From: a virus
Virus record (IMG/VR): IMGVR_UViG_3300014720_002669
Reading direction: 5' to 3' (one strand)
DNA: 64,000 nt
A program made the translations under genes and the position numbers. Shown here in pieces: positions 1-53,585 of this stretch; the stretch's first letter is position 1, and the number at the start of each line of letters is the position of its first letter. The notes beneath the pieces are model-generated. The model did not search any database. It was not told the origin of the DNA and saw only the letters and a list, made by a program, of their open reading frames with translations.

Positions 1-7
1 CGAATAA

Positions 8-15
8 TATAAATA
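8..15 (+). promoter_or_regulatory. T4-type late promoter TATAAATA
   Basis: Exact TATAAATA upstream of AAGGAG SD and ATG 47. Confidence 0.6.
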
Positions 16-8110: not shown

Positions 8111-8899
8111 ATGACTGACTACTATGCTGCACTAGGTGTACCAAAAACTGCCACTGCTGACGAAATCAAACTGGCTTTTCGTCGGCTGGCCGGTACGCAT
8201 CATCCAGACCGAGGTGGCGATACCAAAAAATTTCAAACCATTCAACAAGCCTATGCCACGCTGGGCGACGAACAAAAACGAACAGAGTACGACAACCCCA
8301 GACCACAGTTTTCAGGCTTCTCAGGATTTCACGGTCACCCCGGCGGTGTCAACATCAATGAAATATTTGGCCAAATGTTTGGCCATGGATTTGCACAGCA
8401 AGCTCGACGAAATCATGTGCGTATGACTCTGTGGATTTCGTTGTTGGACGTGGCCACAGGCGGCCGACGCACTGTGAGCCTGGGCACTCAGCAAGGAACC
8501 AGCACAGTGGAAATAGATGTGCCGCAAGGTATCATGGACGGTGACAATGTTCAATACGAAGGCATTGGTCCCGGTGGTGCCGATCTTGTGATCCAATTTC
8601 GAGTGCATCCAAACTCACAGTGGCAACGTCAAGACCTCAATCTCATAACTGAACGAACCATAGGCTTATGGGATTTGATACTGGGTGCCGATCTAGAAAT
8701 GCATACCATAACTGGTCGCACACTGACTGCCAAAATTCCGCCCAAGACACAACCGGGAACCAGTTTGCGACTCAAAGGCCAGGGCCTGACCAATCGCAAT
8801 GGTCAAGTTGGTGATATCTTTGTTCGTATACAAGTTCAAATTCCCGATGCGATTGCACCAGAAATCATCACTGCTATACAAAATAGCCAAAATAAATAA
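8111..8899 (+). CDS. dnaJ: DnaJ/CbpA-type co-chaperone
   Basis: DYYAALGV J-domain with HPD, G/F region, C-terminal LRLKGQG; no zinc finger. Confidence 0.9.
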
Positions 8900-23342: not shown

Positions 23343-24185
23343 ATGATTGATATTGTCACTGTTGTTTTTGAACAAGAAATTTCCATATTACGAGCACAGG
23401 CACAAAGCATTGCTTTAAATTGCCAACGCATTGGTATCCGCAACATCTACGTGGTGTTGAATGACACAGAAACCATTGCCGGTCAAATTGATCCTGCTTG
23501 GTGGGGACCACTGGCCAGCAATGTGCTGATAATTCCACGCACAGCATTCTCCACACCGTTTGTGACCGATGGATGGGTCAGTCAGCAAGTACTCAAACTG
23601 CTCACCGCATCAATGAGCTACAACACTTACTCAATGATTTTGGATGCCAAAACCTTGTTTGTGCGTGAACTGGATCCTGCCACTGTGGTGGACGAAACAG
23701 GTCGAATCCTCACAGGTAGATGTCCCATATACCCTGTGTTCGAGCCCAGCAAAAAAATAGTAGAACAGTTGTTTGAAATTGAACTCACTGAACAACTGGG
23801 CCCTGGTGGTGTGCCATTCATTGTACACAACGACACCGTGAGAATGATGATAGCTGAAGTTACCTTGCGCACACGCACATCATTTCCCACATGGTTCCAA
23901 CAACAAGGCATGGTCACTGAATTTATATTGTATTCAGGCTTTGTAAAATTCTTGTGCGGCAATTTGGAAGTCATGTACGACAGGCAAAACAAACTGGGCA
24001 GCATAGTAAATGTCAGTCATGATGAAACTGTGCATTGGCTGACGAAAATAAATCAAATGAACAATCGAAACACTCTGACTGTGAGTGTGCATAGAGGCGC
24101 CTGGCTCCGACTAACTGCACAACAACGTCAAGAATATCGAGACTTGTTGCTACAACGTGGCATAGAGGCAGCACAAGATCTATGA
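23343..24185 (+). CDS. Glycosyltransferase-like hypothetical (DUF6492-like)
   Basis: GWVSQQVLKL, ILDAK, TEFILY. Confidence 0.55.
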   Translation: MIDIVTVVFEQEISILRAQAQSIALNCQRIGIRNIYVVLNDTETIAGQIDPAWWGPLASNVLIIPRTAFSTPFVTDGWVSQQVLKLLTASMSYNTYSMILDAKTLFVRELDPATVVDETGRILTGRCPIYPVFEPSKKIVEQLFEIELTEQLGPGGVPFIVHNDTVRMMIAEVTLRTRTSFPTWFQQQGMVTEFILYSGFVKFLCGNLEVMYDRQNKLGSIVNVSHDETVHWLTKINQMNNRNTLTVSVHRGAWLRLTAQQRQEYRDLLLQRGIEAAQDL

Positions 24186-25497: not shown

Positions 25498-26546
25498 TCT
25501 ACCACAAACTGTTGTAGTTCTTTTGTTTTTTCTTGTTCAAACTTGTACAGCCTATTGTGATTGTGATCTAACTTGGGTCGGAGTTTTGGCAACAGTGCAG
25601 GCAAGTCTTGCGTACACAGATACTGCACTTGTTCAAACGCCCGGCTCCAACGAACTACGTCATCCGGCTCGGCATCGTATGATTCATCAATGACATCACC
25701 AAATGTTTCAAACCCCCAATCACGATACTGCTGTAAAAAATCTTGTATGGCAAACACCACAAACAGTCTGCGAGCTTGAAAACACTTGGCAGTTTTTTCA
25801 GCAGAAAGAAACACACGATCCTTGCCCAAAGTTTCACACACCACACTGAACCAAGTGCGATTGTATATTTCCCAAGGCACTAGACCGCTGACACTATTGT
25901 CCATGTCTTTTTTAACTTCCCATGCTGAGTCCAAGTTTGGGCTCACATAAGGATACTGTAATGCAGTATTATCAAACAGCCTAGCTACACGTTCGGGTGT
26001 TGAATCAATCCAATGCCCCACAAACAAGTCTCTGTAGGTCACAATGCTCTGTTCCAGCAAGCCTGATTGTTGTAGGCCCAGCATCACAAAGTCTCTGTGC
26101 TCTCGTCGAGCGCCTAGTAAGCATTCAAATGCATAAGCACGTTCGGCAGGAAAATCTTCTCTTGGTTGATTCCACCGCAAGAAGTTGAAACTCCAAGCTG
26201 GTCTGTAAATCACTCTTGGGTGGGGTGGTTCATCCAACCACACACCGGCTGTGTGCAACAGCCAGTTTTCTATGCCTGTGGTCCCAATCCATTCCACAAG
26301 TTCTTTTTTGCTGTGCCACTCAATGTCAGTGAACAACACAAGATCAAATTTGTGCAGCGGCAATTGCATGTATTCTGTGTTGTATTCGTGTTTGTTGGAC
26401 AGACTGTAAAACACCGGCATCACTGCAATGCGATGTGGTTGTGATAATGCAGTGTCTAAGTCTACTATTTGATCGTAGCCAAAGCCCCACTCTGTGGCCT
26501 GGTAGCCCGGGGAGAATACTTTAAGTGAGGCGTGCAAGAGTTTCAC
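25485..26546 (-). CDS. Putative glycosyltransferase-like protein
   Basis: G..R.HR, VVCET, AEKTAK, GFETF..IDESYD; paralog at 58769. Confidence 0.55.
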   Translation of the reverse strand: MKLLHASLKVFSPGYQATEWGFGYDQIVDLDTALSQPHRIAVMPVFYSLSNKHEYNTEYMQLPLHKFDLVLFTDIEWHSKKELVEWIGTTGIENWLLHTAGVWLDEPPHPRVIYRPAWSFNFLRWNQPREDFPAERAYAFECLLGARREHRDFVMLGLQQSGLLEQSIVTYRDLFVGHWIDSTPERVARLFDNTALQYPYVSPNLDSAWEVKKDMDNSVSGLVPWEIYNRTWFSVVCETLGKDRVFLSAEKTAKCFQARRLFVVFAIQDFLQQYRDWGFETFGDVIDESYDAEPDDVVRWSRAFEQVQYLCTQDLPALLPKLRPKLDHNHNRLYKFEQEKTKELQQFVVDHLK

Positions 26547-27405
26547 GTATCTTGTCCATGTAATAATCGAACTTCACAACTTCTTTCCGTTCCCAGTCCA
26601 TTTGCAAACTGCGACTCAAGTCAGGCACAGCATCACACACAGCAGTGTGATATGAAGGATCAAAGTCACCAATCTTTTCCATGTCATCATAATGATATCG
26701 GCGTTGGAACTCTTGGGTGATGGGCCTGCGGCTCATGGTCCAGTTGCCAATGAATTCGTATTCTGAGAACCAGCGTATGAGTTCACCGTTGCCCCAGGGA
26801 GGTACAGTGGGTTCAGGCGGACATGAGTCAATCATGGCATCCAGCCATTTCTTCTGATGTTTTTCTTCCAGGAACTTTACTAAATCGTTAAAGTCTTGTT
26901 TGAGTACAGGCACGTTTTCACTAATAAAGCAGTGCGGGGTAAGTCTGTCAAAGCCCAGGCCGTTCTTGATGCTTTCGTAGTAGCCCCAACTGTGACGTTC
27001 ATTCTCCAGCACTTGAAAATTCAACACCCCGTCCTTGATAGGTTCGTAGGGTCGGATCAGCAGACAATCACAGTCGTGCATGATCATCAAGTCATAGTTG
27101 AGATAATCAAGAAACGCAAATTTGATGGCTTGTTGACGCAGCCAGTAGGTTCGGTAGTCGCCTTCAAACACCCAGTTGTTGACTTCAGGATAGATTCTGT
27201 AGATCTCTGAATCAGGAGCATAGTCTAATTTGGCGGTGTCAATGCCGTACTTTTCAAACACAGGCCACAGTTCTTCCTGCGGTACAGGACTGGCAATACA
27301 AGTGCGGTCTATGCCAATGAGATTGTTGGCAAATTCAGGTTGCAGGCTCATGATAGCATGCGGCACACGATATCGTGCTAGGTATAAAATTCTTGCTGAG
27401 GTCAT
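26521..27405 (-). CDS. Glycosyltransferase-like hypothetical (paralog of 23343)
   Basis: WLRQQAIK, HDCD, FSEYE; AAGGA SD before ATG 27405. Confidence 0.55.
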   Translation of the reverse strand: MTSARILYLARYRVPHAIMSLQPEFANNLIGIDRTCIASPVPQEELWPVFEKYGIDTAKLDYAPDSEIYRIYPEVNNWVFEGDYRTYWLRQQAIKFAFLDYLNYDLMIMHDCDCLLIRPYEPIKDGVLNFQVLENERHSWGYYESIKNGLGFDRLTPHCFISENVPVLKQDFNDLVKFLEEKHQKKWLDAMIDSCPPEPTVPPWGNGELIRWFSEYEFIGNWTMSRRPITQEFQRRYHYDDMEKIGDFDPSYHTAVCDAVPDLSRSLQMDWERKEVVKFDYYMDKIRETLARLT

Positions 27406-27412
27406 ATTTTCC

Positions 27413-28402
27413 TTAGGTGATTGAGCAACTGTTGACACATTGATACAGCCTACCATCGGCAATACTGCTTTTAGCCCAGGTTTGTTCCACACGTTCAAAC
27501 CAGTCAAGACAATGCGCCAAATCATATTTAAGTGCGTTGTTTTCCTCAACCAATTCTTTTGTTTGACTGTTGCCGGCATGATACATGGTTTCAGGGTAGA
27601 ATCCCAGATAGCAACAAGGATACACTGACCCGTCTGCGGCTATGTATATTTCTTGTTTGATCTTGTGTTGACAACGTAAATTTAACTTTGCTGTATCCTT
27701 GTGACTTTGCACAGTGCGCGGATCAAACCATGTGACATGACTTTGTATTAAATCTTTAATGTGCGGCACATGATTGCTGGAGTCTGTGCCAATCCTGTGA
27801 CTGTATTCTCCTGACCTAGTGAACACCGGTCCGGAGTCTCGGCCATCGTAGATGTTTTCAAACTCAACAAATCCCAGGTCTTGGGCCAGTTGTCGGCATT
27901 CGGCTTCTTGATGTCGGTTGTGATCAAATGGTACGAAACGCCATTTGGCCCGACCGCCCGCAGCGATCAAAGCCTGTGCATTGGCTATGACTTTGTTCCA
28001 GTCTGTATCTTGACGGTACAGGGCATGAGTATCTGCCAGACCGTCCAGCGCAAATCCCACAGTGACCCGGGGCAACGCCAAACGCCGCCACCAATCTGTG
28101 TTGCGCAAACTGCCGTTGGTGTTGATGTTTACTGTGACACCATGTTCCGCAAGATACTCAACTATTTCCACAGCGTCTCGAGCCGACGCAAAGTCTCCCA
28201 GGTTGCCATTGAAGTTGACGTGTGTTAGCTGTGATATCACAGGTGCCAAAATGTGCCGGAACTGTGCAAGACTCAGTTCCACATCAGGATAACCTGAATT
28301 GTAATCCAAGCCTCGATAGTTGCGCATACACATGGGACAACGGGCATTGCACCGGGTAGTGAGTTCCACATGCACCTGGCGTATTTGGTCTAATTTTAGC
28401 AT
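27413..28402 (-). CDS. Radical SAM protein with SPASM/twitch domain
   Basis: CNARCPMC; GD; TNGS; DGSVYPCC; TATAAATA upstream on the minus strand. Confidence 0.88.
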
Positions 28403-44281: not shown

Positions 44282-44977
44282 ATGCAAGAAAAGAATTTAT
44301 CACAAGTACTTAGAGAACAAATGACGGCCCGAGGTCACCGCTTCTGGGCCGGCGACAACATCAGCGATTACATGAGCGATGCCATCAAAGAAAAACTCAT
44401 TGACGAAGCCACTGTGGCATTTGAAGGTGTGTTGGATGCCTTGCTGATCGATCGTGAAAACGATCCTAATTCACGTGGCACAGCGCGGCGCTTGGCCAAG
44501 ATGTACTACCACGAAATCATGGCAGGTAGATATGAAGCACCCCCAGATTGCACCGCTTTTCCCAATGACTCAGCAGACCGCTACGAAGGCATGTTGGTGG
44601 TGCGTAGTGAGTTACGTAGTATGTGCAGTCATCATCATCAGCCTGTTAGTGGTGTTGCCTACATCGGAATTATTGCTGCACAAAAACTTATTGGTCTGTC
44701 TAAGTATACTCGTATTGCTCAGTGGTGCGCTCGGCGCGGTACTTTGCAGGAAGAACTGTGTATAGACATCGCCAATGCCATAGAACAGGCCACTGACAGT
44801 CATGATGTTGGTGTGTACATACAGGCCACGCATGGGTGCTGTGAGAATCGAGGTATCATGGCACACAGCAGTCTCACACAGACCACAGTGCTACGTGGTG
44901 CGTTTAAAGACGATGCCAGTGTGAAAAAAGAGTTCATGGACAATATCAAATTACAACAGGAGTTTGCACCGCGATGA
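44282..44977 (+). CDS. folE: GTP cyclohydrolase I
   Basis: SMCSHHHQP, IGLSKYTR, LQEE, HGCCENRG. Confidence 0.95.
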   Translation: MQEKNLSQVLREQMTARGHRFWAGDNISDYMSDAIKEKLIDEATVAFEGVLDALLIDRENDPNSRGTARRLAKMYYHEIMAGRYEAPPDCTAFPNDSADRYEGMLVVRSELRSMCSHHHQPVSGVAYIGIIAAQKLIGLSKYTRIAQWCARRGTLQEELCIDIANAIEQATDSHDVGVYIQATHGCCENRGIMAHSSLTQTTVLRGAFKDDASVKKEFMDNIKLQQEFAPR

Positions 44978-45299: not shown

Positions 45300-45998
45300 A
45301 TGTTTGGCGCAAACTATAGTGAAAATGATGTTATCAATTATCGTTCAGCAGAAGAAATTAATTCGGCCATGGGTCGTGTGTATGGGCACATGAGCTTGGC
45401 TGTACTGTTCAGCATGCTGGTCAGTTATTGGATTGGTACCACACCAGAACTGTTGCAATTCTTTTTCACCGGAGTGTTGAAATGGATTGTTATCTTTGCA
45501 CCTTTGGCAGCCATATTTGGTGTGAGTTATATGTTGGCCAATAACCCTACAAAATCCACAGCACAGTTGTGCTTACATGGATTTGCGGCATTGATGGGCT
45601 TGAGTTTTAGCATGATCTTTGCTGTGTTTACCATGGGCTCAATTGTTAGTGCGTTCATGGGTGCAGCCATCCTGTTTGGTGTGATGAGTGGCTATGGGTA
45701 CTTTACCAAACGCAGTCTTGACAGTGTGGGACAGTTCATGTTTGTGGGCTTGATTGCCATCATTATTGCCAGCATTGTGAACATCTTTATTGGATCAACT
45801 GTAATGCAGATGGTTATCAGTGCATTGGCCATCATTATCTTCCTGGGACTCACTGCCTATGACACACAAAAGATTCGCGAAGAACTCAGTGTGGAGACCA
45901 GTGACAGTGCAGAAGTACGTGGTGCATTGACCTTGTACATGGACTTTATCAACTTGTTCTTGAATCTGTTGCAGTTGTTTGGCGGCAGAAAAGAATAA
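45300..45998 (+). CDS. Bax inhibitor-1/YccA family membrane protein
   Basis: 7 TM; AYDTQKI, ALTLYMDFINLFLNLL. Confidence 0.9.
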   Translation: MFGANYSENDVINYRSAEEINSAMGRVYGHMSLAVLFSMLVSYWIGTTPELLQFFFTGVLKWIVIFAPLAAIFGVSYMLANNPTKSTAQLCLHGFAALMGLSFSMIFAVFTMGSIVSAFMGAAILFGVMSGYGYFTKRSLDSVGQFMFVGLIAIIIASIVNIFIGSTVMQMVISALAIIIFLGLTAYDTQKIREELSVETSDSAEVRGALTLYMDFINLFLNLLQLFGGRKE

Positions 45999-46648: not shown

Positions 46649-47715
46649 GTGTTTGGACCAATTGGGATCCGCTTGAAGAAGTCATAGTAGGTGATTGCCA
46701 TGCGGTACATGCACTGGATTGGTATGTGCCCAAACCACAACAGTCTGCATTCAATCAAATACTTGAAGAAACCAAGCAAGATCTCAACAGGTTGGCGGCG
46801 TTGTTACAATCACTTGGTGTGACAGTTCATCGTCCCTTGGTCCCGAACATACAACAAAATATCCAACTGCCCACATTTTCAATCAAGTGTGCAGTGGCGC
46901 CTGTGGTGCCCAGAGATCAATTTTTGGTATATGGTTCCACTGTGTACCAAACATTTACCAGCATGCCTGACAGATATATCGATAGTTTGTCGTATTATAA
47001 AATTTTCTGCAGCCTATTCAAACAAGGGCACAACTGGCTTAGTCAACCAGCGCCGATTTTGTTTGACATGCCCAATGATGTAGACTGGACACAGCAAGGT
47101 GAAACAGTCTATAAAAAAATATTGCACGAACGTGTGTTGTGGCACACAGCAACCATGTTCAAGTGCGGTGATGCATTGATTACCAATACTGCTGGTCCAG
47201 GCACTGCTTTGGGACTGGAATGGATGCAAAGAAACTTGCCACCCAACACTGTGGTAGCCAATCACAATACCACGCAAAACAACTGGGGTCACATTGATCA
47301 TGGGTTTTTGATGATAGATGACCACACTGTGATCTGCAAGAACTCGGAGTTTGTGCCCAAAGTTTTGCGTGATAAAAATATAATATGTGTGCAACAATAT
47401 CTAACTGAGAATCAATCAGTGCTACCTGCTCATGCTGTGTTGAGCAACAATCTGCAGCACATACACAGCCTGCTGGATGAAGCCAAGGGCTATGAACAAG
47501 TTACCAACTTTGATTTGAATGTGCTGGTAGTAGATTCCAAAAATATTATTTTTGGATCTCATCGTCCAGAGTTATTTGCACATTTAAAACAGCATGGTAT
47601 AACATGTCACGTCAGTGAATTTAGACACAACAAATTTTGGTATGCCGGCATACACTGTGTTACCTTGGATATTCGACGCCGTGGTCAACAAAGAAAGATT
47701 ATCAATGAAATATGA
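46645..47715 (+). CDS. Amidinotransferase (AGAT/StrB1-like)
   Basis: WDPLEEVIVG, PRD, GHID, GIHCVTLDIRR. Confidence 0.85.
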   Translation: MSVWTNWDPLEEVIVGDCHAVHALDWYVPKPQQSAFNQILEETKQDLNRLAALLQSLGVTVHRPLVPNIQQNIQLPTFSIKCAVAPVVPRDQFLVYGSTVYQTFTSMPDRYIDSLSYYKIFCSLFKQGHNWLSQPAPILFDMPNDVDWTQQGETVYKKILHERVLWHTATMFKCGDALITNTAGPGTALGLEWMQRNLPPNTVVANHNTTQNNWGHIDHGFLMIDDHTVICKNSEFVPKVLRDKNIICVQQYLTENQSVLPAHAVLSNNLQHIHSLLDEAKGYEQVTNFDLNVLVVDSKNIIFGSHRPELFAHLKQHGITCHVSEFRHNKFWYAGIHCVTLDIRRRGQQRKIINEI

Positions 47716-48106
47716 AACATTAAAAGAAGCACAGAACGCAGGTGTAGCACCTTGGGATTTAGAAGTTGAACAACTGTCAGACTTTCACGTGGCAGTGTTT
47801 CGAGATCGTTATCCTGTTGCCCGTGGGCATTTGTTATTTGTGCCACAGTACAACACAGATGCGGTAATTAACGACTGTTTTGAAACTGCCATGCGTGAAG
47901 GTCGTAGAATGGTTGACGCTGGCGAATGTGATGCATTCAACATAGGCATCAACATGGGTGCAGCGGCAGGCCAAACTGTGATGTATCCGCATGTGCATTT
48001 GATTCCTCGTCGTCATAGCGACTGCGCTGATCCTGTGGGAGGTGTGCGTGGAGTGATAGTTGGTCAAGCCAATTATAAAAGTGCATCGTATCAACTTCCC
48101 AACTGA
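47705..48106 (+). CDS. HIT-family hydrolase
   Basis: DRYPV..GHLL, AAGQTVMYPHVHLIPR. Confidence 0.9.
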   Translation: MKYETLKEAQNAGVAPWDLEVEQLSDFHVAVFRDRYPVARGHLLFVPQYNTDAVINDCFETAMREGRRMVDAGECDAFNIGINMGAAAGQTVMYPHVHLIPRRHSDCADPVGGVRGVIVGQANYKSASYQLPN

Positions 48107-48115
48107 TTTTTCGCA

Positions 48116-48538
48116 ATGATACGCTATCTAGAGTTACCAAAAATTCCCGATGACATTTTGCAAATCATTCCGACTGAGTTGAATAAATATCATTGCAAGA
48201 TTAACTATGGCACTTACAATTGGTCTGACAGTTTCAATCAAGAACTCAATGCCTGGGGACAACAGTATATTTGCCAAGATATGTATTTTGCTTTTCAATT
48301 GATGACTGGCGATGTACCTACACACAAAGACATAGGAACAAAAACCAAACTGGTTTATCTTCTTTGCACTGGCGGGGACAATGTGATAACAAATTTTTAC
48401 AACAAAAACAACAAATGCACACATAGTTATCACATAGAACTACATCGTTGGCATATTTTGCAAGCAAGTAGAAAACACAGTGTGGATGGAATAGTGCCAG
48501 GAAGTCTAAGACTCAGTGTTACTGGACGTATTTTTTAA
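48116..48538 (+). CDS. Possible cupin/2OG-Fe(II)-like protein
   Basis: HKD...H..V...R.S pattern; AT-rich. Confidence 0.5.
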   Translation: MIRYLELPKIPDDILQIIPTELNKYHCKINYGTYNWSDSFNQELNAWGQQYICQDMYFAFQLMTGDVPTHKDIGTKTKLVYLLCTGGDNVITNFYNKNNKCTHSYHIELHRWHILQASRKHSVDGIVPGSLRLSVTGRIF

Positions 48539-48543
48539 TCACC

Positions 48544-48608
48544 TACCGGCCTTTGGCATCATTCCCGGTATACAAATTCTGCTGCCTATGCTAAAATTAA
48601 CATAGGAG
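48544..48608 (+). promoter_or_regulatory. Candidate pseudoknot / SD-sequestering RNA switch upstream of queD
   Basis: TACCGG/CCGGTA stem; loop GGCA pairs with TGCC; CCTATG/CATAGG hairpin covers part of AGGAG. Confidence 0.5.
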
Positions 48609-48615
48609 AAAAAGC

Positions 48616-49149
48616 ATGTCACAAGATCAAAACCAAGTAGGTCACCGCTGGATGTCAGCAAGACAGTACAAGTACACATCAACCAAAGAGTATCACGATG
48701 CGTTTCCATGCGCATATCGTCAATGGCGAGCAGACAGTCATTGCAATTTGATTCATGGCTATAGTTTCTCGATGAAGTTCTACTTTGGTACAGATAACTT
48801 GGATGTACGCAACTGGGCTGCCGACTATGGTGGTCTCAAAGAACTCAAGTCGGTGTTGGAAAGTCAATTTGACCACACATTGTTGGTAGCCGAAGATGAT
48901 CCTGAACTAGAGTTCTACAAGGAAATGGAACGCCGTAGTCTTGCCAAACTAACTATACTACCCAAACTGGGTTGTGAAGGACTGGCTGATCAGCTGTACA
49001 AATATGTGAACGGTGTTTATATTCCTGACATGTGGGGGCAAGGTGAAGCAGCTCGACTGTGGTGCTATCGCGTGGAAGTGCGTGAAACCCAGAGCAACAT
49101 GGCTTTTAGAGAAGGCCATCGCGAATGGAATGAGGATTTATTTGCATAA
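48616..49149 (+). CDS. queD: 6-carboxy-5,6,7,8-tetrahydropterin synthase
   Basis: CNLIHGY, DYGGLK, FDHTLL, GCEGLA, VEVRET. Confidence 0.88.
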   Translation: MSQDQNQVGHRWMSARQYKYTSTKEYHDAFPCAYRQWRADSHCNLIHGYSFSMKFYFGTDNLDVRNWAADYGGLKELKSVLESQFDHTLLVAEDDPELEFYKEMERRSLAKLTILPKLGCEGLADQLYKYVNGVYIPDMWGQGEAARLWCYRVEVRETQSNMAFREGHREWNEDLFA

Positions 49150-49158
49150 GGATCAAGT

Positions 49159-50019
49159 ATGAGTATGGTAACTTACGATCAATCACATCGTTACGATATT
49201 GCTATGTTGTTGGCCACACGAGGCCGAACTGAAAGTCTGGACCGCAGTGTTCGCAGCCTAATAGAGTTGGCTGACCATCCTGAACGTGTGCAGTTGATGT
49301 TTGCGTTTGATCGCGATGATGTGATTGGCAAAGATTATTTTAAAACGAAACTTCAACCCTGGATGGATCAACAAAAACTGGCCTACAAGGCCATGATATT
49401 TGATCGCCAGGGATATCACAGACTACACATCTACAACAACAAGTTGGCAGAAAATACCGATTCACGTTGGCTGATGATTTGGAACGATGATGCCTACATG
49501 GAAACTCAAGGTTGGGATACCACCATCATGAGTTACGAAGGACAATTTCGATTGCTGGCTTTTCATACTCACATGGATCATCCCTACAGCATCTTTCCTA
49601 TCATTCCAAGAAAGTGGTTTGATTTGTTGGGCTATATCTCACCACACAGTGTGCAAGATGGCTGGCTAAGCCAACAGGCATACATGCTGGATATCTGGCA
49701 GCGTATACCTGTGAATGTGTTACATGACCGTGCAGATCTAACCGGCAACAACAATGATACCACGTTTCGTGAACGTGCATCGCTGGAAGGTCGTCCCATG
49801 GACGAAAATGACTTTCACAGTAGGTCACAGATAGCATTGCGACAGCAAGATTGCTATAAATTGGCAGCTTATATGTTGAATGATTTGCAAATGGATCTGA
49901 GTTTTTTCAACAATATCTGGCTGGGCGCACAAGATCCCTGGGAAAAATTAGCTAAAAATGATGTCAACAAGCAAATGGTTCAGTTTTCTAATCCGCATGT
50001 GCATTTTGGAAACAAGTAA
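49159..50019 (+). CDS. GT2-like glycosyltransferase
   Basis: LATRGR, DRDD, WNDD. Confidence 0.7.
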   Translation: MSMVTYDQSHRYDIAMLLATRGRTESLDRSVRSLIELADHPERVQLMFAFDRDDVIGKDYFKTKLQPWMDQQKLAYKAMIFDRQGYHRLHIYNNKLAENTDSRWLMIWNDDAYMETQGWDTTIMSYEGQFRLLAFHTHMDHPYSIFPIIPRKWFDLLGYISPHSVQDGWLSQQAYMLDIWQRIPVNVLHDRADLTGNNNDTTFRERASLEGRPMDENDFHSRSQIALRQQDCYKLAAYMLNDLQMDLSFFNNIWLGAQDPWEKLAKNDVNKQMVQFSNPHVHFGNK

Positions 50020-50026
50020 ATAAGAC

Positions 50027-52033
50027 ATGACATGTAACATTGCTTGGGTACAACCAAATTTTCAACAAGGACCAAAAGAGTTCAACGCCTACTATCTGCC
50101 TTATTCTGCAGGCGTGATATGGAGTTACAGCCTGGCAGACCCGGCCATACGTGAACGCTTCAAAGTTACTGAATTTTTGTGGCGCAGAGAAGCCATCGAA
50201 GAAACAGCTGAAAGATTGTGTAAAAATGACATGGTGGCATTCAGCACCTATGTTTGGAATCATCGCTACAACTATGAACTTGCTCGGCAGATCAAAGCAC
50301 GAAATCCCAACACAGTGATTTTGTTTGGTGGACCTGAGCCTGCTATCACAGACGTCAACATTTTCCGGGACAATCCTTTCATGGATTTGATCATTTGTTA
50401 CGAAGGTGAAATCACATTCAAACGTGTGTTGGAAGTGTTTGACACCAAGAACTGGGAAAGTGTAGCCGGCCTGCTGATCAACAGAAATGGCGAAGCTGTA
50501 AAAACTGAAGAAGCCAAGCGTATTGAAAGTCTTGAAGAAGTTGAAAGTCCATACTTGTCTGGTATATTTGATCAACTCATAGCTGATCATCCTGAGGTAA
50601 CCTGGCAAGGCACCCTGGAAACCAATCGTGGCTGCCCGTATCAATGTACCTTTTGTGACTGGGGCAGTCTGACCTACAACAAAGTCAAGAAGTTCAAACT
50701 GGAACGTGTGTTTGCTGAACTGGAATGGATGGCTCAGCACAACTTTGATTGGATCAGTATAACTGATGCCAATTTTGGCATGTACCCCGAACGTGACGGC
50801 ATGATTGCAGACAAGATCATTGAGTGTCAAGAAAAATATGGATCACCAAGAACATTCTCAGTGGCCTGGGCCAAGAATCAAAAGAAAGAAGTCATAGACA
50901 TTGTGAAGAAACTGTTGGATGCCAAGGGATTCAATCAAGGACTCACACTCAGCGTACAGAGTTTGGACTTGGATGTGCTGGAAAACATTCGTCGCAAGAA
51001 CATGGAAATGAACAAGCTCAACGAAGTATTTGAGCTGTGCGACCAACGCAACATTCCTGCATACACAGAATTGATCCTGGGCCTGCCTGGTGAGACCCTG
51101 GAAACATGGAAAAAAAACTTCTATGCCTTGTACGAATTAAATCAGCACACCGGCATCACAACATTCCAAGCACAGTTGTTGGAAAATGCCGAAATGAACC
51201 TGTTACAGAAGAAACTGTTCAAGATCACCAGCCAACCTGTAACAGACTACTTTGCTGGCAGCTACAGTGTGGAACACATTGAAGAAAGCATTGATGTCAT
51301 CACAGGCACCAAAGACATGCCTACTCCAGTGATGCTGGATGCACAGATATTTGCCTGGTTCCAGACCACGGTTCACATCAACGGCTTTGCTACTTTGGTC
51401 GCACGTTTTATCAACAAGTACCTGAACATCAGTTACAACAACTACTACGAAGAATTGTTTGCACACTTCATGACCAATGAATGGGTAAAGAAAGAAGAAT
51501 CTGAAGCCCGTATGTACTTCAACAATTGGATGATGACCGGACGCATTAACCATCCCAAGATTGGTGTGGAAATACACGGCTGGAACATCATTCACAGAAC
51601 CAGCATGAACATGCACCAGGAAAATCAAGTGGAACAGTTGTATGATCATCTGGAACAGTTTCTAGAACGCTACAACTTGCCCCCAGATCTGTTGGCCAGC
51701 TTGATGAAACTGCAAAGAAGTTACTACATCAAGTATGATGACAGAAATCAGTACCCCATGAACTTGCAGTTGGAATACAACATCTGGGAATATTTGAGCT
51801 TCAGTAAGCCTCTAGAAAAAATTCCCACTGTGTATCGATTGGATTTTCCTGAAGACAAGACCATGAGTTTTAATAGATTTTTGGAATTGTTTTACTTTGC
51901 AAGACGCAGAAACTTTGGCAAGGCCACGGTGGATCGCGTCAGTGGCGGAGACTCCAAAGGCGCTCGTCGAGGCGCAGGTGCTGCCAAAGCACAAGGCAGT
52001 TTTTCAGTGAAGAAAAAACAACTAGTGGCGTGA
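50027..52033 (+). CDS. B12-binding radical SAM protein
   Basis: FSTYVWN, GGPE, EGE, RGCPYQCTFCDW, DANFG, ELILGLPGET. Confidence 0.88.
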   Translation: MTCNIAWVQPNFQQGPKEFNAYYLPYSAGVIWSYSLADPAIRERFKVTEFLWRREAIEETAERLCKNDMVAFSTYVWNHRYNYELARQIKARNPNTVILFGGPEPAITDVNIFRDNPFMDLIICYEGEITFKRVLEVFDTKNWESVAGLLINRNGEAVKTEEAKRIESLEEVESPYLSGIFDQLIADHPEVTWQGTLETNRGCPYQCTFCDWGSLTYNKVKKFKLERVFAELEWMAQHNFDWISITDANFGMYPERDGMIADKIIECQEKYGSPRTFSVAWAKNQKKEVIDIVKKLLDAKGFNQGLTLSVQSLDLDVLENIRRKNMEMNKLNEVFELCDQRNIPAYTELILGLPGETLETWKKNFYALYELNQHTGITTFQAQLLENAEMNLLQKKLFKITSQPVTDYFAGSYSVEHIEESIDVITGTKDMPTPVMLDAQIFAWFQTTVHINGFATLVARFINKYLNISYNNYYEELFAHFMTNEWVKKEESEARMYFNNWMMTGRINHPKIGVEIHGWNIIHRTSMNMHQENQVEQLYDHLEQFLERYNLPPDLLASLMKLQRSYYIKYDDRNQYPMNLQLEYNIWEYLSFSKPLEKIPTVYRLDFPEDKTMSFNRFLELFYFARRRNFGKATVDRVSGGDSKGARRGAGAAKAQGSFSVKKKQLVA

Positions 52034-52743
52034 TGTCAAGACTGTTTACATTTGGGTGCAGTTTTACCAACTATCGTTGGAGCACCTGGGCCGATTGTCT
52101 TGCTCCTGAATTTGATTATTTTGAAAATTGGGGGCAGGCCGGTGGCGGCAATCATTATATTTTTAACTCAGTGATGGAAGCTGATCAGCGTCACCAATTT
52201 GGTACAGGTGACACTGTGATAGTTTGTTGGACCAGTTTAGATCGCGAAGATCGTTATGTTGATGGACGATGGCATACTCCGGGCAATGCGCATTTTGCAA
52301 CCAATGTGTTCAACAAAGAATATCTCAAAACACACATTGATGAGCGAGGATTTTTAATTAGAGATCTTGCCTATATCAAAGCAGTAAAAACGTTGTTGGA
52401 AAATTGTCCAGGGTTGACCTGGCGTTTCTTGAGCATGGTAGAACTCATGGCTCGTCCCTGGCCCGATGATGATGTTAGTTTGCACAGAGATGTCATGAGA
52501 TTGTACAGTGATGTACTGGATACTATCTTGCTGGGCTATGATAAAACTGTGTTTGCTGAAACTGGATGGCCCAATAGAAATGGCGATCCACATCCCAGTC
52601 CAGACGAGCATTTGGCCTATTTGGACGCAGTGTTGCCGGGATGGGTGACAAAAGCAGAAACTCGTGTTAAAATGCATGAACAAAGCGTCAATCTAAATAA
52701 AGATCCCCGCAAGTCGGGCATGACAAAGGTAACAAGACTATGA
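52030..52743 (+). CDS. SGNH-like hydrolase
   Basis: FGCSFT, NWGQAGGGN, DPHPSP. Confidence 0.6.
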   Translation: MMSRLFTFGCSFTNYRWSTWADCLAPEFDYFENWGQAGGGNHYIFNSVMEADQRHQFGTGDTVIVCWTSLDREDRYVDGRWHTPGNAHFATNVFNKEYLKTHIDERGFLIRDLAYIKAVKTLLENCPGLTWRFLSMVELMARPWPDDDVSLHRDVMRLYSDVLDTILLGYDKTVFAETGWPNRNGDPHPSPDEHLAYLDAVLPGWVTKAETRVKMHEQSVNLNKDPRKSGMTKVTRL

Positions 52744-53585
52744 AATTAAAAGTATCAGAATTATTTTATTCAGCACAAGGTGAAGGACGCTATGTTGGCG
52801 TACCCAGCATATTTTTACGCATGTTTGGTTGCAACTTTACGTGTAGTTCATTTGGTTGCAAGCCAGGTGAACGCAGCACAGAAGCAGACGAAGTTGCTAA
52901 AACGGTTGGTCTATACCGAACATTTGAAGAACTGCCCTTGGTGAACACTGGGTGTGACAGTTACGCTTCATGGCATCCTGACTTCAAGCATCTTAGTCCC
53001 ACATACACAGTAGCCGAACTGGTGGACCGAATGACTGAGTTGTTGCCCCGTGGCTCATGGCTACAACCCAATGGCAATCCTGTGCATTTGGTGATCACTG
53101 GCGGCGAGCCATTGCTGGGTTGGCAACGTGCCTATCCAGAACTGCTGGATGTACTAGCCGAGCGTGGACTGCGACATATCACATTTGAAACCAATGGTAC
53201 TCAAGAATTGAGTCGAGAGTTTAGAGACTACTTGCGCAACTGGTTTGGTGAGATCACGTTCAGTGTCAGTCCCAAGCTCAGCGTGTCGGGCGAGTCCTGG
53301 TCTGATGCCATCAAGCCTGACGTGGTCTGGGACTATGAGACATATGGCGTGACTTATCTCAAGTTTGTGGTGGAAAAAGTTGCGGACTTTGACGAACTGG
53401 ACCGTGCTGTGGATGAATATCGCCTGCGTGAGTTTGGTGGTCCTGTGTTTGTGATGCCAGTGGGCGGAGTTGTATCAGTGTATGACGGCAATAGAATCTC
53501 AGTGGCTGACGAAGCACTCCGACGTGGCTACTGGTACAGTCCACGACTTCACGTTGACCTTTGGGGCAATGGATGGGGCAAATAA
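52740..53585 (+). CDS. queE: 7-carboxy-7-deazaguanine synthase
   Basis: ELFYSAQGEG, FLRMFGCN, CDS, TGGEP, ETNGT, SVSPK, PRLH. Confidence 0.9.
   Translation: MKLKVSELFYSAQGEGRYVGVPSIFLRMFGCNFTCSSFGCKPGERSTEADEVAKTVGLYRTFEELPLVNTGCDSYASWHPDFKHLSPTYTVAELVDRMTELLPRGSWLQPNGNPVHLVITGGEPLLGWQRAYPELLDVLAERGLRHITFETNGTQELSREFRDYLRNWFGEITFSVSPKLSVSGESWSDAIKPDVVWDYETYGVTYLKFVVEKVADFDELDRAVDEYRLREFGGPVFVMPVGGVVSVYDGNRISVADEALRRGYWYSPRLHVDLWGNGWGK

Follow-up and report, generated by a model that had tools for sequence, protein, structure and literature searches.

Phage-only riboswitches are rare, and to our knowledge all validated preQ1 riboswitches act as OFF switches of cellular genes. In the adenine riboswitch of Vibrio vulnificus add, stabilization of the aptamer frees the strand that masks the Shine–Dalgarno (SD) sequence and AUG, and the bound state permits initiation. 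Members of the preQ1-I class are H-type pseudoknots in which P1 measures 5-6 bp, the base immediately before its 3' strand is a specificity C and an A-rich L3 docks into the minor groove of P1; their P2 of 3-4 pairs holds part of the SD and the ligand represses translation (PMC10622847). The class comprises types I-III, with examples from B. subtilis queC, T. tengcongensis and E. coli yhhQ (PMC10622847). Structured leaders are also described for phage genes. For T4 e, soc, 49 and I-TevI, the ribosome-binding site (RBS) is masked on long read-through transcripts and an internal promoter gives short, translatable ones (PMC3014915). The gene 32 leaders of T4, T2 and RB69 contain a pseudoknot that serves autogenous translational control via gp32; this pseudoknot, 67 nt before the start codon, is the nucleation point from which gp32 binds cooperatively along an A/U-rich tract that lacks structure (PMC3014915).

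Here we describe a conserved leader upstream of a queD-like gene. The window, by which we mean the whole 64-kb stretch of DNA that was analysed, is probably part of a large uncultured phage, with tightly packed genes that are nearly all on the plus strand. Megablast against the phage collection gave no match to the window region, and the 64 kb contain no tRNA genes. The intergenic gap between the stop codon of the upstream ORF (48536-38) and the ATG of queD (48616) is 77 nt, and positions 48545-48586 within it have the pairings of an H-type pseudoknot with P1, P2 and an A-rich L3. The parts of the locus are as follows.

48116..48538, + strand: upstream ORF of 140 aa with no family; its TAA stop (48536-38) lies 6 nt before P1
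48545..48549, + strand: P1 5' strand, ACCGG, partner of 48565-69
48550..48554, + strand: L1, CCUUU, pyrimidine-rich; family range 4-10 nt in the anchored alignment
48555..48561, + strand: P2 5' strand, GGCAUCA, in which U48559 is the conserved mismatch partner
48562..48563, + strand: L2, UU; 1-2 nt in the family
C48564, + strand: invariant C directly 5' of the P1 3' strand
48565..48569, + strand: P1 3' strand, CCGGU
48570..48579, + strand: L3, AUACAAAUUC; A-rich, with length fixed at 10 nt
48580..48586, + strand: P2 3' strand, UGCUGCC, in which C48582 is the mismatch partner; common to the masking fold
48616..49149, + strand: QueD-like gene (6-carboxy/6-pyruvoyl-tetrahydropterin synthase), 177 aa

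The encoded protein matches Pfam PTPS (8.7e-14) and the QueD-like phrog_2389 (6.2e-35), with a score against TIGR03367 that is below the family cut-off.

A sequence-only reading of this DNA had drawn attention to a pseudoknot and a competing SD-masking hairpin at this site. The pairings that it listed (48544-49/48565-70, 48555-58/48583-86 and 48585-90/48601-06) are all present, as are the SD AGGAG at 48604-08 and the queD ATG at 48616, but several extend differently than was proposed. Five pairs of the suggested 6-bp P1 are conserved (48545-49/48565-69) while the sixth, T48544-A48570, is not. The 4-bp loop pairing of GGCA with TGCC is real but belongs to a longer P2, 48555-61/48580-86, which has seven positions in the window (7-8 in the family) and forms six pairs around a U48559·C48582 mismatch. 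The hairpin does share C48585-86 with the pseudoknot, although the full overlap amounts to 6 of the 7 nt of P2 rather than two. Folded as a lone sequence the leader is no better than shuffled sequence (z = -0.70), and the case for the structure thus rests on comparison with its relatives.

Across these relatives the unpaired invariant bases gather at the junction of P1 and P2, where they comprise the C before the P1 3' strand, the U·C mismatch together with the UCA/UG end of P2, and the A residues and UC of L3. The C is present in all 44 unique cores found by the model and in every QueD-anchored leader; the UCA end of the P2 5' strand is near-invariant; and L3 has an invariant A at positions 3, 5 and 7 and an invariant UC at positions 9-10. 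The distal part of P2 and the whole of L1 are free to vary. This distribution of fixed and variable bases is the pattern expected of a pocket at the junction.

The sequence-only reading had seen no preQ1-I consensus at this site. This observation stands in so far as no Rfam preQ1 model matches, but the architecture is close to that of preQ1-I, which had been missed. Both are very small H-type pseudoknots whose 5-bp P1 ends in G-C pairs at the junction; C48564 occupies the position of the specificity base, where it may contact a ligand; the A-rich L3 could line the P1 minor groove; and the motif precedes a gene of the queuosine/7-deazaguanine pathway and is predicted to act on translation initiation. 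There are also consistent differences. In place of 3-4 pairs, P2 spans 7-8 positions that include a conserved internal U·C mismatch. Of the loops, L1 is long (4-10 nt) and rich in pyrimidines, L2 is short at 1-2 nt, and L3 always has 10 nt and a UC end. From P2 downstream to the SD the distance is 18 nt or more (18 in the window), and the SD lies in a separate competing mask; the predicted output is ON rather than OFF, and the motif is confined to uncultured phages. RF00522 (preQ1-I) gave no match at E <= 10 in a search of 48000-49200, of the 86 nt alone or of ten diverse loci. No Rfam 15 family matches the leader, with preQ1-II (RF01054), preQ1-III (RF02680) and all others giving matches at noise level only. 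Given this and the structural differences, we have not filed the motif as a member of preQ1-I; it is either a variant that resembles preQ1-I or possibly a new class. The best of the noise matches, to freshwater-2 (RF02980), reached 12.4 bits against a threshold of 49.9 bits and aligned via the SD/AUG part only; a literature search for the freshwater-2 motif found nothing. Weak overlapping matches far below threshold (Phe_leader, rimP leader, asX2 and BSnc120) were also seen just downstream of queD in one relative (L079, 3446-3546), and this region may be structured or of low complexity.

Both helices covary and their pairings are conserved among homologous leaders, which bears out the earlier proposal of an H-type pseudoknot with a competing SD-masking hairpin before a QueD-like gene. 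For this analysis a structure-anchored alignment of 123 unique aptamers replaced one made with MAFFT, which had misplaced the variable L1 and L2 loops. In P1 the three outer pairs occur as AT/TA/GT, GC/CG/TA and CG/AT/TA, respectively, and the two junction pairs are invariant G-C. A perfect 5-bp P1 is present in 173 of 178 queD-adjacent instances as against 14 of the 120 chance matches listed from cellular genomes with the same core pattern, a comparison in which perfect P1 pairing was itself one filter used in picking instances. The pairing of P2 was examined in a P2-centred alignment of 106 sequences. Here 88.0% of cells were paired compared to 66.5% in shuffles (0 of 500) and 23-46% when the strands were slid; double-sided changes numbered 172 against about 72 expected, and the covariation score was 0.535 against 0.182. 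The junction-proximal P2 pairs are fixed in this alignment yet compensated elsewhere, with A-U replaced by G-C in two loci (L357 and L369) and C-G by U-A in a third (L020), while the U·C mismatch within P2 is nearly invariant.

We examined the distribution of the motif using both the protein and the RNA as starting points. From IMG/VR we retrieved 80 loci on the basis of their QueD (81-96% identity); 70 have the motif in the leader, and in the ten without it queD mostly abuts the upstream gene. A sister clade (L015, L017-L019, L024-L026 and L072) has no leader, with queD abutting a gene that ends ...HIWGNTMGT*, and no motif was found within the fetched flanks. Control of queD must differ in this clade, perhaps through translational coupling. 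In a second QueD clade, whose protein is about 60% identical, the covariance model detected the motif in 72 of 80 loci, always on the sense strand and just upstream. A context-blind pattern scan of all viral contigs with the invariant core as query brought the total to 189 instances, 178 of which are directly upstream of a QueD homolog. The other instances having P1 precede a QueD with a GTG or TTG start, a QueD clipped by the contig end or an operon in which QueD is second. In three loci (L165, L174 and L183) the motif precedes another ORF (of 113 aa, of 240 aa or with a TTG start) and QueD is the second gene, which suggests that the switch can control a small operon. Association of the motif is therefore exclusive to queD operons. 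Conservation starts exactly at P1, and 83 type A leaders (defined below) have 40 unrelated upstream contexts. Within the 64-kb window there is a single occurrence, at 49.8 bits compared to 11.4 for the next best match, and no second copy was found there or in the phages with a leaderless queD.

Searches beyond viral contigs gave little. A scan of 185,579 cellular species genomes yielded two real instances among the first 120 core matches listed, both in MAG bins on short or phage-like contigs with phage-like QueD contexts, and as a negative control only 1 of 118 chance core matches listed from cellular genomes passes both the P1 and the P2 tests. The motif was not found in cultured phages by blastn, and none of these phages has a QueD above 56% identity to that of the window; in the two nearest full-length cultured matches, ACP17 and R5C, queD overlaps the upstream gene. 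Within the viral, cellular and cultured-phage searches, the motif is thus carried only by uncultured phages, hundreds of which keep it via compensating base changes. In the literature library that was searched, no paper describes the motif or a phage queD riboswitch.

Downstream of the pseudoknot the leaders fall into three expression-platform designs, types A, B and C, and the window is of type A. The relevant features are as follows.

48585..48606, + strand: masking hairpin of the window, CCUAUG/CAUAGG, covering AGG of the SD
48604..48608, + strand: SD, AGGAG
Type A platform (including the window): CCUAUG/CAUAGG, covering AGG of the SD
Type B platform: (U)GCCAUUG/CAAUGGC(A), covering AUG
Type C platform: UGUCGUC/GAUGGCA, covering AUG

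In the window the masking hairpin is extended by pairing of UGCU 48580-83 with AGCA 48613-16, and the mask (-6.6 kcal/mol) and the P2 duplex (-5.1 kcal/mol) are of similar strength. The probability that the SD is unpaired rises from 0.25 in the free leader to 0.85 when the P2 3' strand is engaged. In each of the 132 unique leaders the P2 3' strand contributes 2 nt or more (about 5 on average) to a helix over the interval from the SD to AUG+5. When this strand is blocked, the stability of the leader drops from a range of -8 to -11.5 kcal/mol to one of -3 to -5.6 kcal/mol, a cost of 5-7 kcal/mol. As the P2 3' strand is common to both, the knot and the mask are mutually exclusive, and stabilization of the knot should therefore favour initiation. 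The predicted withdrawal of a strand from an SD/AUG mask by an aptamer resembles V. vulnificus add, whose aptamer is a three-way junction, unlike the queD leader, and has no homology with it in sequence or structure. From these folding calculations the wiring would be ON. A weak alternative helix between UAUGCU 48587-92 and AGCAUG 48613-18 (-3.1 kcal/mol) could cover the AUG once P2 forms, however, so that the direction of regulation in the window is not secure.

The leader of the window also contains the following element, which was absent from the sequence-only reading.

48569..48597, + strand: sigma-70-like promoter with -35 TATACA (48569-74), a 17-nt spacer, TG (48589-90) and -10 TAAAAT (48592-97)

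This near-consensus promoter with an extended -10 overlaps L3, the P2 3' strand and the hairpin loop, and its predicted transcription start is at about 48603-05, in the 3' arm of the mask. An internal promoter is found in 84 of 88 type A leaders compared to 0 of 47 leaders of types B and C, whereas a promoter upstream of P1 is found in 4/88 and 27/47, respectively. This upstream promoter of types B and C is strong and lies just ahead of P1, where transcripts would start. In type B it is present in 10 of 14 leaders with a -10 that ends about 7 nt before P1, so that the transcript would begin at the aptamer. Among type A leaders, 76 of 83 have a C at the free position of L3, where it completes the "..ACA" of the -35, as against 2 of 47 of types B and C, and conservation of the type A hairpin loop is limited to the part that forms the -10. 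We read the double coding of type A bases, for promoter and for aptamer or platform, as genuine, and the internal promoter may be in use in this type.

We put the probability at about 0.6 that the queD leader is a cis-acting metabolite riboswitch of preQ1-I-like build that is wired ON. In this mechanism 48545-48586 fold into a compact H-type pseudoknot with the invariant C and the 10-nt A-rich L3 at the helical junction, while in the alternative state the P2 3' strand can join the fold that masks the SD and the base preceding the AUG. A metabolite that stabilizes the pseudoknot would cause the P2 3' strand to leave the mask and so turn on translation of queD. The invariant C at the specificity position suggests a guanine-faced ligand, and the effector would likely be such a compound from the 7-deazaguanine pathway or among its precursors; for an ON switch, preQ0 and preQ1 are no more plausible than a precursor or an intermediate of the pathway. 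In type A, initiation at the internal promoter would yield transcripts that have neither the aptamer nor the 5' arm of the mask and escape control, leaving only read-through transcripts from upstream genes under the switch. Besides the unremarkable single-sequence fold and the weak helix over the AUG, further considerations count against this reading: an ON switch on a first committed enzyme would be unusual if the effector is the end product, and the internal promoter of type A may supply most queD mRNA without an aptamer. A narrower proposal, which we advance tentatively and at slightly less than even odds, is that the motif constitutes a phage-restricted new class in which a preQ1-I-like fold with an extended, mismatch-bearing P2 responds to a guanine-faced metabolite to turn queD on, with one lineage fused to an internal promoter such that the origin of a transcript would determine whether it is under the switch. 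The metabolite of such a class may be preQ0, CDG, 7-deazaguanine, guanine or a GTP-derived precursor.

Similar observations could arise if the leader were a protein-binding translational operator whose pseudoknot is recognized by QueD or a general phage repressor, as the T4 gene 32 pseudoknot is by gp32, with the protein shifting the balance of knot and mask. We consider this unlikely. Covariation combined with invariant loop bases is no less compatible with a protein site than with a ligand pocket, yet in a fold this small the invariant junction bases closely mimic a known metabolite pocket. While the strict tie of the motif to queD operons speaks for an operator, it is retained in front of QueD proteins with 40-60% difference in sequence. 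Autogenous control through a phage leader pseudoknot is documented for gene 32 of T4, T2 and RB69 (PMC3014915) and the queD leader is likewise an mRNA leader pseudoknot with predicted translational control, but no cooperative A/U-rich tract of the gene 32 type is conserved and neither such a tract nor a binding protein is evident at the queD leader. We assign a comparably low likelihood to ligand-independent control of the T4 gene e type, in which the pseudoknot would only tune the folding, stability or processing of read-through RNA. As in T4 e, soc, 49 and I-TevI, which provide the precedent (PMC3014915), type A leaders have, at the level of consensus and conservation, an RBS in a helix and a promoter within the structure. 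Of these leaders, 84/88 have a near-consensus promoter with its -10 in the hairpin loop and a start predicted in the 3' arm, and positions that are structurally free are biased to the promoter consensus. Unlike the T4 arrangement, however, this promoter is sigma-70-like rather than T4 late and is restricted to type A, and the mask is coupled to a conserved pseudoknot. Types B and C, without an internal promoter (0/47), keep the same pseudoknot and strand-sharing mask, and their promoter placement would make the aptamer the 5' end of the mRNA; control of the gene e type also leaves the invariant junction nucleotides and the covariation of type A P2 unexplained.

The leader is much less likely to be an ordinary member of preQ1-I (RF00522) acting as an OFF switch for preQ1 or preQ0, a reading that we disfavour. 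In its H-type topology, its 5-bp P1 with a C before the 3' strand, its A-rich L3 and its position ahead of a que gene, the leader agrees with that class (PMC10622847), but the model is not matched at E <= 10 even in the 86-nt search, P2 has 7-8 positions with the SD 18 or more nt beyond it, and the wiring predicts unmasking rather than masking. Finally, the probability is close to nil that the element acts only at the DNA level, as a promoter and/or palindromic operator with RNA pairings that arose by chance. Although a promoter consensus shares bases with the motif and the leader folded as a lone sequence gives no significant result, this reading is contradicted by covariation. Both interleaved helices show compensatory changes in a set of >120 unique sequences, controlled by shuffling and sliding, and types B and C share the fold without an internal promoter.

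If the riboswitch interpretation is correct, the leader would represent a phage-only, ON-wired relative of preQ1-I placed on queD, which encodes the first committed enzyme of 7-deazaguanine synthesis, and would show how phages time or gate the production of the modified, DNA-protecting bases that they use. Such a leader would also provide a new ligand-pocket variant for one of the smallest known aptamer folds and a compact natural ON switch (about 45 nt) usable in engineering. The overlap of a promoter with both aptamer and expression platform would be an unusually dense case of dual coding, and the type A arrangement would tie riboswitch control to the T4 device in which the origin of a transcript decides whether its RBS is masked.

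The gene content around the leader is also relevant to the nature of the pathway. The genes identified in the window are listed below.

8111-8899: full DnaJ, with J domain and C-terminal domain
44282-44977: FolE, near the queD leader
45300-45998: Bax-inhibitor-1 family membrane protein (Pfam 4.4e-54)
47615-48106: HIT-domain protein
49159-50019: glycosyltransferase-like ORF, between queD and queE
50027-52033: KedN5-like B12-binding radical-SAM C-methyltransferase, between queD and queE
52030-52743: ORF of no assigned kind, between queD and queE
52740-53585: QueE-like gene

No QueC, QueF or TGT/DpdA was found among the 50 ORFs scanned with Pfam, PHROGs and NCBIfam in this window, which is part of a genome, and the product of the cluster, on which the plausible effector depends, may therefore not be the usual preQ0-derived DNA base. 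The Bax-inhibitor-1, DnaJ and HIT proteins are auxiliary genes that are uncommon for a phage. A radical-SAM/SPASM protein (27413-28402, - strand) and two DUF6492 proteins (23343-24185; 26521-27579, - strand) form a short minus-strand block that sits inside an otherwise plus-strand region.
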